Source: Candidatus Micrarchaeaceae archaeon (lineage in GTDB: Archaea; Micrarchaeota; Micrarchaeia; Micrarchaeales; CABMGC01). From it: a stretch of 29,827 nt of DNA. Shown one piece after another: positions 23,535 to 26,992 of this stretch (the first letter of the stretch is position 1; each line of letters starts with the position of its first letter). The notes under the pieces were generated by a model. That model made no database searches and had not been told where the DNA came from. It saw only the letters and a program-made list of their open reading frames with translations. Both the position numbers and the translations under genes were made by a program. The DNA is taken from assembly GCA_038882355.1 (NCBI GenBank), contig JAVZOJ010000001.1, forward strand, positions 1 through 29,827, given 5' to 3'.

Positions 23535-24224
23535 TTACACTCCGTGGAACCAAAATCCCTTCTCTTTTTCTTGCTTCTTCTTGAATATTTTGGCAAATAA
23601 GCTCTGCTTCTTTTGCTTTACTTCTATGTTTAGCTCTTTCGCCAAATCTGGATGCTCAAGCAAATAGTTGTTTTGAAACTCTGCAAACTTCTCCATTTTC
23701 CTCTTCTCATAGAGCGCTTTCTTTTTGTTCCATTCTTCTTTTATCTTCTCCCACTCTTCTTTAGTATAGCCATAAGGCGGGTGCTCCCTTATCTGCGCCG
23801 GGTTGTATTGCTTTGAATATACCTCTTTGTAATAGTCCACTTCATTTACTGTCGCGGTTGAAATGTCTACATGCACAGACTTAGACTCAAGGAATTGCTT
23901 CAGCTCTTCAAGGCTTATCTTTGGCTTTCTGTTCTTTGCATCTGGAGGATTAAACATGACATATATGCTTCTCTTGACAAAGCTCACTTGGGCCCTTAGG
24001 ACAGGCTCCAAAAGGAGGAGCTCGTACTGAAGTCTTGCAGAATGCTCAAGGTCTATGAGCTCTTCCTTCTTTATATTGTTGAAAGTCACTTCCTTTACAA
24101 TTCTATATGGCACCCTGAATATCTCTCCATTTTCTTCTACAAACTCCTCCTCAACGCTCTCTCCTCCCTCTTCGAGGTCTTTTAGAAAGCCGCTTTTTTC
24201 TGGGCCTGTTTGCCTCCTATCCAC
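23535..24224 (-). CDS. Hypothetical protein with an HMA-like (ferredoxin-fold) central region lacking CxxC
   Basis: EPVLRAQVSFVKRSIYVMFNPP...ISLEELKQFLESKSVHV resembles the second half of HMA domains; no Cys in the protein; Lys-rich tail. Start reassigned to GTG 24224, 2 nt after the radical SAM stop. Confidence 0.6.
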   Translation of the reverse strand: MDRRQTGPEKSGFLKDLEEGGESVEEEFVEENGEIFRVPYRIVKEVTFNNIKKEELIDLEHSARLQYELLLLEPVLRAQVSFVKRSIYVMFNPPDAKNRKPKISLEELKQFLESKSVHVDISTATVNEVDYYKEVYSKQYNPAQIREHPPYGYTKEEWEKIKEEWNKKKALYEKRKMEKFAEFQNNYLLEHPDLAKELNIEVKQKKQSLFAKIFKKKQEKEKGFWFHGV

Positions 24225-24226
24225 GC

Positions 24227-26041
24227 TTACGCACCGCAGCCGCAGTCTCCATTGCCGCAGGCGCATGTATTTCCTGCGGCATTTTCTATCGCCACCTCTA
24301 CTGCTTCTTTCTCTCTTTTCCTGATTAATTTCGCATCAGCCTTGTTTACTTCGAGACCAAAGTAGTCAATCATGTTTTGGTAAGTCCTCTTATAAGGCTC
24401 ACCTTCTTCAAGGGCCTTGACGTTCCTTATGTACTTGTCTTTTGCATAGTTCCACTCAGGATGCTCCTTCTGCCATTCCTTCGAAGGTATGCTGTACTGC
24501 CTCTGCACTTTGTCTCTGTAAATTTCAGGGAATACATTGAACGTGCAGAATGGAAGCACTCTTCCGTCAGGCATCGCATAATGAATGTCGCATTTCTCTA
24601 CTCTGTGTATGTCATAAGTAAACTCATCCTGGAAGTGCATCATTCCGAGGAATACTGTCTTCATTTGGAATGCTCCTATAGAGGAGAAGTCATGCTTTAC
24701 TATTAGCGAAGTCAATAGCTTGAAGAAGTTTACGGACTTTGGCTGCCTTTCCTTGTCTATGAATCTTTTTATTCCGACGAGCGCCTTCAAAGCTATTAGC
24801 TTTCTTTCTAGCCTTGATTTGCCCTCCATTTCATTTATTGCTTCTTGCAGATAGTCAAGGAGCCCTCTTGCATCTACAAAGCGCGTAAGAGGAATAATCT
24901 TTCCGTTTGGCTCTACAAACAAGTACGAACCTGCGCCGCACGCAAAGTGGATGGAGAGGTCGTATTTGTATTCACCAGTCAGCGCTTCTATAAACTTGTT
25001 TATTCCTCCGACATAAGGGACTGAAAACCAATCCTCTTTTGTTATAACGCCCCCTGTCTGCTCCTCTATGAGCTTTATCGCACCTGGTATAGTGATTCTC
25101 TGCTTCTCCCTTAGCCTGTCAGGCATTCTTCCGACAAGCGATACAGGCTGGAAGTTTACTGCTCTTACTATGTCGCTATTATTAAGGGCAAAGTTTATGA
25201 TCTTCCCAAGTTCGTGGTCGTTTATTGTCCTTATGACTGTAGGCACAAGGACTACGCCAATCCCGGCCTTCCTTGCCGCATCGAGCGTATATGGCACTTC
25301 CCAGTGGTTCTTCGGATTAGCTCTTGGAGTAACGCCATCGAAGCTCATATACAATGTGCTTACCCCGGCATACCTCAATTCCTGTGCAAGCCGAGGATTT
25401 TGGGCGAGTATTATCCCAGTGGTATTCAGCTGTATTTGGTCAAAACCTACTTCTTTCGCCATAGCAATTATCTTAACGATATCTTTTCTCATCAAAGGCT
25501 CTCCACCAGTGATCTGTATTGCGTTTGCAGGTATCGGCTTTTGGTTCCTAAGATTTTGGAATATTTTCCTTAACTCAGAGAGCGAAGGTTCGTATATGGC
25601 TTCTCCCTCTTTCGCATAGAAGAAGCAATACCAGCATGAGAGATGGCATCTGTTTGTAATCACCACGTTTGCCAAGCCAGTATGAGACTTATGCCTTTGG
25701 CACATGCCGCAGTCATAAGGGCAATTGACTCCTGTATTTGGGTAATTCGGATTGTCAAAGCCTCTGCCATAGTAGTTGTAGTCTCTCATTTTCATATACA
25801 TTTCATAATCTTCCCAGTATTTCTCTATAGTCCAGCCATGCTCTTCGCAATACTTTCTTATCATTACGGTATCTCCGTCTTTGTATATAATTCCTTTTAT
25901 AATAAGCTTGCATTGAGGGCATACAGTCATTGTTTGGTCGATGACTGGCATCTTCTCTATTTCTTCCATTGTCCTGTGGTAAACTTGCAAATGAGGCTCT
26001 ATCTTCTCTTGCTGCTTTTCTATTTGCATCTCATCTGTCAT
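24227..26041 (-). CDS. tes: Radical SAM tetraether lipid synthase homologue (Tes / GDGT-MAS, MJ0619 family)
   Basis: N-terminal CPQC...CEEH, CPYDCGMCQRH, radical SAM CHLSCWYC, GGEP, QLNTTG, YMSFDG, NFQPVS, HFACG, MHFQD...EKCDIHY, PFCTFN. Start reassigned to ATG 26041 (AGGTG upstream). Confidence 0.88.
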   Translation of the reverse strand: MTDEMQIEKQQEKIEPHLQVYHRTMEEIEKMPVIDQTMTVCPQCKLIIKGIIYKDGDTVMIRKYCEEHGWTIEKYWEDYEMYMKMRDYNYYGRGFDNPNYPNTGVNCPYDCGMCQRHKSHTGLANVVITNRCHLSCWYCFFYAKEGEAIYEPSLSELRKIFQNLRNQKPIPANAIQITGGEPLMRKDIVKIIAMAKEVGFDQIQLNTTGIILAQNPRLAQELRYAGVSTLYMSFDGVTPRANPKNHWEVPYTLDAARKAGIGVVLVPTVIRTINDHELGKIINFALNNSDIVRAVNFQPVSLVGRMPDRLREKQRITIPGAIKLIEEQTGGVITKEDWFSVPYVGGINKFIEALTGEYKYDLSIHFACGAGSYLFVEPNGKIIPLTRFVDARGLLDYLQEAINEMEGKSRLERKLIALKALVGIKRFIDKERQPKSVNFFKLLTSLIVKHDFSSIGAFQMKTVFLGMMHFQDEFTYDIHRVEKCDIHYAMPDGRVLPFCTFNVFPEIYRDKVQRQYSIPSKEWQKEHPEWNYAKDKYIRNVKALEEGEPYKRTYQNMIDYFGLEVNKADAKLIRKREKEAVEVAIENAAGNTCACGNGDCGCGA

Positions 26042-26073
26042 TTCGACACCTAAAACAAGTTTTATTAGCAACC

Positions 26074-26088
26074 TATTTAAACCTTGCC
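26074..26088 (-). promoter_or_regulatory. TATA promoter of the tes operon
   Basis: Minus-strand GGCAAGG-TTTAAATA, with the TATA about 32 nt upstream of ATG 26041. Confidence 0.55.
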
Positions 26089-26116: not shown

Positions 26117-26992
26117 TTACGCGCGCAGCTTTCCTGATATTACTTGGCTTGCGACCTTGTCAGGAAGTATGTCTATCCCATTTTCCCTTAATGCATGAAG
26201 CGGAGCTGCAATCGCTATATCGCGGAGAAGTATAATCTCATTTTCCAAGCCTGCTCTTTTCGCCAATTCGAGGTTCGCGTCTATCGAATTTTTTATAAGG
26301 TTGAGTAGAGGTATTGTAATCTTAAGAACTTCTTCTTTGCTAATCTTTTTGTCTCTAAGAAGCTCTTTTGCTTTTTCTTCTCCCCAGCTACTTTCTTTTG
26401 CATCTTCTTCAAATATCTTCTTTACCTGCTTGAGAAGCTTCGGCGAAACAGGAAAGAACGCTTTGAAGAATGCATTTCCGAATACCTTTGCATAAGAATA
26501 CCTTATAATCAAATCTATGACCAAGATTCTTCCTCTATTCTCCCTAATTCCTCTTATGTAATCGAAGACTTCGACCACTTCTCTTGGATACGTTACTTTC
26601 TTGTCTGTCTTCCTTACTGTGAGAAGAAGGGCATACATCGCCTTGATATGCTTCTCATATGCCTCTAAGAGCTTTTTATAATGCTCTCCGTATTCTCTCT
26701 CATCTCCAACATACCTTTCTTTAGACCACTCCTCGACCACGTTTTTTAGCATTTCTTCCCCATACAAAAAGAGAGAGCAAATATATGCAACCTGGCTGCT
26801 TGAAAGCTCTATGCCATTTGGCAAAACTGCTTTTCTCCCAGTAAAAAGGCCCCTTTTTCTCCCTGTAAGTATGAAGCTCAACGCCCTCTTCACTGCATTG
26901 GCAGGATCTTTCCTTATATACCTAAATGCGTATTTCTTTACCCATGGAGGAAGGTTGTAGTCCCTAATGATCTGGTCTATCGGCCCTTCCAT
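26117..26992 (-). CDS. Hypothetical protein, mostly helical; possible degenerate ferritin-like C-terminal bundle
   Basis: 291-aa ORF with typical composition and ATG start, filling the space between tes and bcp. The fold guess rests only on spaced GEE, EAYEKH and EEDAKE helices. Confidence 0.7.
   Translation of the reverse strand: MEGPIDQIIRDYNLPPWVKKYAFRYIRKDPANAVKRALSFILTGRKRGLFTGRKAVLPNGIELSSSQVAYICSLFLYGEEMLKNVVEEWSKERYVGDEREYGEHYKKLLEAYEKHIKAMYALLLTVRKTDKKVTYPREVVEVFDYIRGIRENRGRILVIDLIIRYSYAKVFGNAFFKAFFPVSPKLLKQVKKIFEEDAKESSWGEEKAKELLRDKKISKEEVLKITIPLLNLIKNSIDANLELAKRAGLENEIILLRDIAIAAPLHALRENGIDILPDKVASQVISGKLRA

Follow-up and report, generated by a model that had tools for sequence, protein, structure and literature searches.

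A native tetraether lipid synthase and its conserved partner gene in reduced archaea of the order Micrarchaeales

Homologues of the tetraether lipid synthase Tes, also known as GDGT-MAS (GDGT, glycerol dialkyl glycerol tetraether), have been reported across metagenome-assembled genomes (MAGs) of DPANN archaea, where contamination by host DNA was suspected (Zeng et al. 2022, PMC8941075). Here we analyse a tes gene (24227..26041, minus strand) and the conserved gene directly downstream of it in a 29,827-nucleotide stretch of Candidatus Micrarchaeaceae archaeon DNA (contig JAVZOJ010000001.1 of assembly GCA_038882355.1; hereafter, the window). Tes is native to the order Micrarchaeales and near-universal there, forming standard equipment across the order. 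It is neither host contamination nor a recent transfer, because closed genomes carry it and its sequences form one long-stemmed clade apart from those of the Thermoplasmata hosts. We assign a probability of roughly three in four to the reading that the window encodes a functional Tes, a core gene passed down vertically since the Micrarchaeales ancestor, which would act most likely on diethers assembled by the cell itself around a glycerol-1-phosphate (G1P) backbone or precursor from outside, and which would work together with the partner.

An intact Tes orthologue

The tes open reading frame (ORF) is intact and encodes 604 residues, running from an ATG at 26041 to a stop codon at 24227-24229 (included in the coordinates of the gene) with no internal stops; a TTG 30 nt upstream of the ATG is the mechanical start of the ORF. 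Pfam recognizes a Radical_SAM domain and a Zn_ribbon_HMPTM domain, an HMPTM-type N-terminal zinc ribbon. The protein scores 673.7 bits against the NCBIfam Tes equivalog NF045702 (cut-off 450), covering positions 1-485 of the 486 in the model, and the next, non-Tes model, TrsS, reaches 302.6 bits, under its cut-off of 490. In control searches, M. jannaschii, S. acidocaldarius and M. acetivorans all scored above the NF045702 cut-off, and the Tes of M. acetivorans (MA_1486) and of S. acidocaldarius (Zeng et al. 2022, PMC8941075) belong to the same equivalog as the window protein. Residues 35-528 align to residues 23-516 of the solved M. jannaschii GDGT-MAS (7TOL; also 7TOM) with an E value of 1.5e-126. 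We also built a maximum-likelihood tree of 87 sequences (LG+C20 PMSF, quick search), from which the characterised M. jannaschii, M. acetivorans and S. acidocaldarius sequences were left out, with four non-Tes paralogues as the outgroup. There, the window protein falls inside an 83-sequence Tes clade, separated from the paralogues by a branch of 1.25 with a Shimodaira–Hasegawa approximate likelihood-ratio (SH-aLRT) value of 100. Its score above the equivalog cut-off, the TrsS score below its own and its placement inside the Tes clade together support the assignment of the window protein as a genuine Tes orthologue rather than a non-Tes paralogue, and its sequence suggests that it has Tes catalytic activity and forms a Tes product in this organism.

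The four metal-binding sets that a first-pass annotation, made from the letters of the window, had recognized are all preserved, with every ligand kept and spaced as in the M. jannaschii enzyme MJ0619 (7TOL, 7TOM; Lloyd et al. 2022, PMC9433317). The rubredoxin-type Fe site, C41-X2-C44-X20-C65-X2-H68 (25838..25921, minus strand, as are all the sites below), has spacing identical to that of C9X2C12X20C33X2H36 in MJ0619 (PMC9433317). The ligands of the N-terminal auxiliary [4Fe-4S] cluster, C107-X3-C111-X2-C114-X2-H117 (25691..25723), match C73, C77 and C80 plus a histidine of MJ0619, and the radical-SAM (SAM, S-adenosylmethionine) CX3CX2C motif comprises C132, C136 and C139 (25625..25648), which are invariant in both homologue alignments. 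The C-terminal auxiliary cluster region (24545..24940) contains C368, M468, C484, Y488 and C499, placed by alignment to 7TOL and by their invariance in the alignments, with C368, C484 and C499 as the probable cluster ligands. The metal-site residues are invariant or nearly so in 16 diverse and 38 closer homologues; C132, C136, C139, C368, M468, C484, C499 and H117 are invariant across the 16 diverse ones.

M468 and Y488, 20 residues apart, align to Met439 and Tyr459 in 7TOL, so the equivalence that the first-pass annotation had drawn from their spacing stands. Its description of the pair as functionally important does not, since the M439A and Y459F/L variants of MJ0619 remain robustly active in vitro (PMC9433317); these residues, conserved yet dispensable in vitro, are therefore better regarded as markers of the family. 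The window Tes shares the four metallocofactor sites and the Met/Tyr positions with MJ0619, whereas it adds N-terminal (~35-residue) and C-terminal (~75-residue) extensions, a Cys-rich CxC tail and an obligate downstream partner gene.

Upstream of the gene lie a putative promoter and ribosome site (26047..26081, minus strand). The TATA-like TTTAAATAGG (26072-26081) stands 31-40 nt before the ATG and a GGTG (26047-26050) 5 nt before it. Both elements that had been proposed could thus be located, but they are consensus matches only, and a single match to the TTTAAATAGG 10-mer arose in 13 of 100 shuffled sequences.

A native gene of the order Micrarchaeales

The window is the largest contig (29.8 kb) of a 549,520-bp genome in 57 contigs with 88.7% completeness, 0.2% contamination and a uniform GC content of ~0.41. 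Archaeal housekeeping genes surround tes on this contig (LonB, Topo VI-A, aRF1, two FtsZ, a KaiC-like ATPase, Lhr, an ATP-dependent DNA ligase and XPD). The source is a reduced member of Micrarchaeales, the order that also includes Ca. Mancarchaeum acidiphilum, and therefore DPANN, as the first-pass annotation had suspected. The closest Tes proteins (70-78% identity) bear the source names Ca. Micrarchaeota, Micrarchaeales, Micrarchaeaceae or Mancarchaeum, and a closed genome of the order (952,257 bp) carries exactly the Ca. Mancarchaeum acidiphilum Tes. The tes loci of several genomes in the GTDB family of the window have match statistics identical to those of MAGs named Ca. Micrarchaeota/Micrarchaeia.

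A scan of 300 sampled genomes of the phylum, one-contig closed genomes included, found Tes in 50 of the 53 genomes of the window's family and in 70 of the 75 of its sister family, that is, in 120/128 of the order, with closed genomes among them. Across all other families of the phylum, 12 of 172 genomes yielded a match (10 above the cut-off), and these represent different Tes types that are ~50% identical. The Tes that had been highlighted as an oddity in a DPANN cell is thus ordinary equipment in this order. NCBI already annotates these proteins as 'tetraether lipid synthase Tes [Candidatus Micrarchaeaceae archaeon]', and this naming, together with the report of Zeng et al. 2022, makes its presence here less surprising than had been held.

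In the tree, the window Tes belongs to a 21-sequence clade (SH-aLRT 100) on a long stem of 0.7, which contains genomes of the order and MAGs mostly labelled Micrarchaeota by NCBI, along with one Acidiferrales and one 'uncultured archaeon' entry. Closest to this clade are two other Micrarchaeota sequences and a Thermococcus Tes that contains an intein, whereas the Tes of the usual hosts (Thermoplasmata, Ferroplasma and Thermoplasmataceae) form a separate 100% clade. A host derivation, which the first-pass annotation had set against vertical descent, is thus not what the tree indicates. Uniting the Micrarchaeales and Thermoplasmata Tes in a single clade worsened the log-likelihood by 33.8 (approximately unbiased (AU) test, p = 0.093), and an ancient sister relationship is not formally rejected by this value. 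The window Tes is ~50% identical to every sequence from outside Micrarchaeales, which excludes both a recent host-to-symbiont transfer and contamination. The gene order DHH-partner-tes is common to genomes of the same family. Across the order, Tes is 69-77% identical and its neighbours far less so (32-37% for the DHH gene and 36-51% for the partner), which indicates strong purifying selection on Tes.

These data leave next to no room for the explanation that Zeng et al. 2022 suggested for Tes homologues in DPANN MAGs, namely that host DNA was binned wrongly (PMC8941075): the 29.8-kb contig that carries tes is populated by archaeal housekeeping genes and comes from a bin whose contamination is 0.2%, the gene order is conserved family-wide, the Tes clade is distinct from Thermoplasmata, and the closed, single-contig genomes of the order that carry Tes refute host contamination. 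Mis-binning does happen, as a few clade members sit in MAGs labelled Methanothrix, Baltobacteraceae and Acidiferrales, but in the opposite direction.

Several further observations concern Tes beyond the window. Some MAGs that bear the labels Methanothrix sp., Baltobacteraceae, Acidiferrales bacterium or 'bacterium' contain Tes of the Micrarchaeales or Thermoplasmata type, probably on mis-binned contigs. The few Tes genes of other Micrarchaeota families are of different types, one group scoring ~700-730 bits and another ~550-560 bits with open frames of ~490-530 residues. Those compared with the window Tes are 48-54% identical to it and scattered in the tree, which suggests several Tes origins within the phylum. 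Aenigmatarchaeota and Iainarchaeum MAGs in the tree also carry Tes. In two closed genomes of the order, G193 (C1:309446-310905) and G063 (C1:264809-266267), TAA stops break Tes in one and the gene is split into two adjacent frames in the other; the partner beside each reads intact, and the broken copies may reflect Tes decay. A search of 50%-identity representatives yielded chiefly Tes that are distant or contain inteins, and it was used above all as a source of outgroups; of ten representatives looked up, only some carried a source name. Many of the nearest are 800-1300 residues long and match Tes in at least two separated stretches, as expected for intein insertions; Thermococcus (intein-containing Tes) and one cluster with Archaeoglobales members are named among these long forms.

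A conserved partner gene and co-varying tails

The partner gene (23535..24224, minus strand) encodes 229 residues, and its GTG start codon is separated from the tes stop codon by 2 nt. In all the Micrarchaeales loci that we inspected, it comes immediately after tes on the same strand. Across the phylum scan, the distributions of the two genes coincide fully: the partner accompanies Tes in 50/53 and 70/75 genomes, and the eight remaining genomes of the two families have neither gene. Elsewhere in the scan, we found no partner except one weak match in the sister lineage, and it does not stand beside Tes in other phyla. Searches of the protein returned no consistent Pfam family (E values up to 1) and no HMA match, and its Atlas clusters consist of Micrarchaeota-only 'hypothetical proteins'.

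The partner contains no cysteine and combines an HMA-like ferredoxin fold with a long helix and a basic tail ending in GFWFHGV. In its AlphaFold2 model (pLDDT 82.5), an N-terminal β-hairpin and a domain of ferredoxin-like fold are accompanied by a helix of 45 residues and a basic tail that is disordered, and the best fold matches are HMA/copper-chaperone domains (TM-scores normalized by target of 0.7-0.8; Foldseek E values of 1e-4 to 1e-2). The predicted core has the same ferredoxin-like β-α-β-β-α-β arrangement as HMA/Atx1/CopZ-type metallochaperones. Unlike them, the partner lacks the CxxC site (the GMxCxxC metal-binding motif of HMA domains is absent from this Cys-free protein) and has the extra β-hairpin, the 45-residue helix and the basic aromatic tail.

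Tes itself carries clade-specific C-terminal features. Past the end of the solved MJ0619 structure, residues ~529-575 (window 24380-24460, minus strand) form a conserved extension, DKY.RN.K.LE...Y.KTY..M.DYF.LPVN, which is common to Micrarchaeales and has a looser version in some other long Tes proteins. The protein then ends in a Cys-rich tail outside the solved and conserved core, CACGNGDCGCGA (24230..24265, minus strand; C593, C595, C600 and C602). Of 119 close Tes homologues, 79 end in Gly/Cys-rich (CxC)n tails, which include longer CGCG-repeat forms; CACGNGDCGCGA, a single CxC...CxC unit, is the minimal and shortest version, and its own genome has no second such tail.

Among 72 distinct Tes–partner pairs, 35 have both the Cys and the WFHG tail, 33 have neither, 4 have WFHG only and none has Cys only, giving a concordance of 68/72. 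On the tree, these patterns correspond to ~8-10 changes and four independent contrasts, of which three are concordant and none is discordant (sign test, p ~0.25); the co-variation of the two tails is thus suggestive but not significant. Ca. Mancarchaeum acidiphilum and other Micrarchaeales, whose Tes belong to the same clade as the window Tes (70-78% identity), share the two-gene arrangement; in Mancarchaeum both tails are absent, the Cys tail from Tes and the WFHG tail from the partner.

A functional linkage of Tes and the partner is probable. The two genes would be co-transcribed, and their products probably act jointly. More tentatively, at odds that we put somewhat below even, tetraether synthesis in Micrarchaeales may be a two-protein module of a (CxC)n-tailed Tes and an obligate Cys-free, HMA-like, WFHG-tailed partner, which could anchor the soluble Tes at the membrane or, where the surroundings are acidic and oxidising, store metal or Fe-S for its four cofactors or bring it to them.

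A partner gene beside Tes appears to be new. The literature that we searched contains no obligate Tes partner gene and no co-varying tails, no evidence of Tes as a native, vertically inherited, near-universal gene of Micrarchaeales, and nothing on Tes within a nearly complete ether-lipid pathway lacking G1P dehydrogenase. The supplements of Zeng et al. 2022 have no 'Micrarchaeota' entries, and neither DPANN nor a partner comes up in a review of lipid radical-SAM enzymes from 2026.

On the other side of tes, a 291-residue ORF (26117-26992, minus strand) belongs to no Pfam family; among the related loci searched, homologues were found in only two genomes of the same family, at 41-43% identity.

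Lipid supply and the likely substrate

The genome retains much of an ether-lipid pathway. GGGPS (TIGR01769, 190 versus a cut-off of 161) and mevalonate kinase score above their cut-offs, as does a diphosphomevalonate-decarboxylase-type gene (TIGR01240). The gene directly after this one encodes an IPK-like amino-acid kinase and is truncated where the contig ends, and the pair (C13:13663-15045) looks like a mevalonate-pathway operon. An IdsA-like prenyl-diphosphate synthase and an HMG-CoA reductase were identified as best matches below cut-off. A PF08540 (HMG-CoA synthase) search gave no match in the genome, and the model likewise fails to detect the M. jannaschii and Sulfolobus controls. Of 301 genomes of the phylum, 294 encode GGGPS, and ether-lipid assembly is therefore general in Micrarchaeota, Tes being the feature that sets Micrarchaeales apart. 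Of the further enzymes named in the first-pass annotation, a single UbiA prenyltransferase with best matches in the DGGGPS group, a partial CarS interrupted at a contig end and a GGR resembling DGGGPL reductase (325 bits) were recovered only below cut-off, whereas GGGPS passes its own.

The genome encodes only a small set of other radical-SAM proteins: LipA, an MtaB-like enzyme, TYW1, an unassigned rSAM/SPASM protein, a partial AmmeMemoRadiSam enzyme and a 558-residue B12-binding radical-SAM-like protein (C15:10319-11992, plus strand). The last has a Pfam Radical_SAM score of 25.6 bits and a weak TIGR04013 match, its nearest Atlas clusters are ~560-residue archaeal proteins of Thermoplasmatota and Nitrososphaerota, and it may be Grs-like or another lipid-modifying radical-SAM enzyme.

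By homology to GDGT-MAS (PMC9433317), the window Tes would bind two saturated diether phospholipids, and two SAM-derived 5′-deoxyadenosyl radicals would successively abstract hydrogen from the terminal methyls of the phytanyl tails. The first radical would be parked as a C–S bond on the C-terminal cluster before the C–C bond is formed, converting archaeol-type diether phospholipids into membrane-spanning GDGT and possibly macrocyclic archaeol. The substrate would be made in the cell, from the mevalonate pathway through geranylgeranyl diphosphate, GGGPS, a DGGGPS-like enzyme, CarS and GGR, with the G1P backbone or its precursor supplied from outside.

Four sets of observations weigh against this reading. 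First, the UbiA, GGR, HMG-CoA reductase and CarS matches all fall under their NCBIfam equivalog cut-offs. Second, G1P dehydrogenase was not found in this genome, and of 30 near-complete family members, closed genomes among them, a single one has it. This agrees with its absence from Ca. Micrarchaeum harzensis (Krause et al. 2022) and distinguishes this reduced symbiont from M. jannaschii; the backbone or a precursor must therefore be imported, and some host dependence remains. In addition, searches of this genome, which is 88.7% complete, turned up no CDP-alcohol phosphatidyltransferase, although 25 of 30 relatives have a weak match. Third, a co-culture of a related Micrarchaeon did not differ from its host in lipids, from which the study inferred that the symbiont relies on the host for lipids or their precursors (PMC8975820). 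Fourth, halobacterial Tes homologues occur in strains without detected GDGT (PMC8941075), and homology alone is therefore no proof of product.

The second and third of these points also bear on the main competing explanation, in which host diether lipids are taken up and Tes only converts them to tetraethers. The systematic absence of G1P dehydrogenase from the family, the lack of a head-group transferase in this genome and the host dependence and incomplete lipid pathways of Micrarchaeota (PMC8975820) are in keeping with such remodelling, but finished diethers, if imported, would make GGGPS, the DGGGPS-like enzyme, CarS, GGR and the mevalonate genes superfluous. Host diethers are also scarce, the membrane of the known Thermoplasmatales host being ~97% GDGT-0 with minor archaeol (PMC8975820). 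We therefore regard remodelling of host lipids as unlikely. The retention of a nearly full pathway makes self-made diethers the likelier substrate, and the cell's own archaetidyl lipids would be the most economical one, because the pathway is kept and the host membrane offers little diether. The earlier suggestion that the cell makes or remodels its own GDGTs is thereby favoured in its first part by the retained genes, with host diethers the less likely route.

It is considerably less probable still that this Tes-family enzyme yields another product, either macrocyclic archaeol only or another tail-to-tail C–C coupling product, and not GDGT. MJ0619 produces both macrocyclic archaeol and GDGT (PMC9433317), GDGT is undetectable in some organisms that carry Tes homologues (PMC8941075), and the C-terminal extension, the Cys tail and the partner gene are clade extras absent from the characterised enzyme. 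Against this, the window protein exceeds the curated Tes equivalog cut-off with every ligand conserved, and the cultured Micrarchaeon co-culture contains almost only GDGT-0 (PMC8975820).

Collectively, our findings address, for a single DPANN lineage, the concern raised by Zeng et al. 2022: Tes is native and order-wide there. The sampling also suggests that Tes marks Micrarchaeales off from most other lineages of Micrarchaeota, in which GGGPS is retained and Tes is lacking. Tes and the retained pathway argue that these symbionts assemble membrane lipids of their own, cross-link them and rely on the host mainly for the G1P backbone, thereby qualifying the view that DPANN archaea simply borrow host lipids and bearing on the source of GDGT-0 in acidic environments. 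The linked partner and the Cys-rich tail point to a possible accessory factor in tetraether synthesis, a lead open to experiment in an order for which cultured co-cultures exist, those of Mancarchaeum and Micrarchaeum harzensis.

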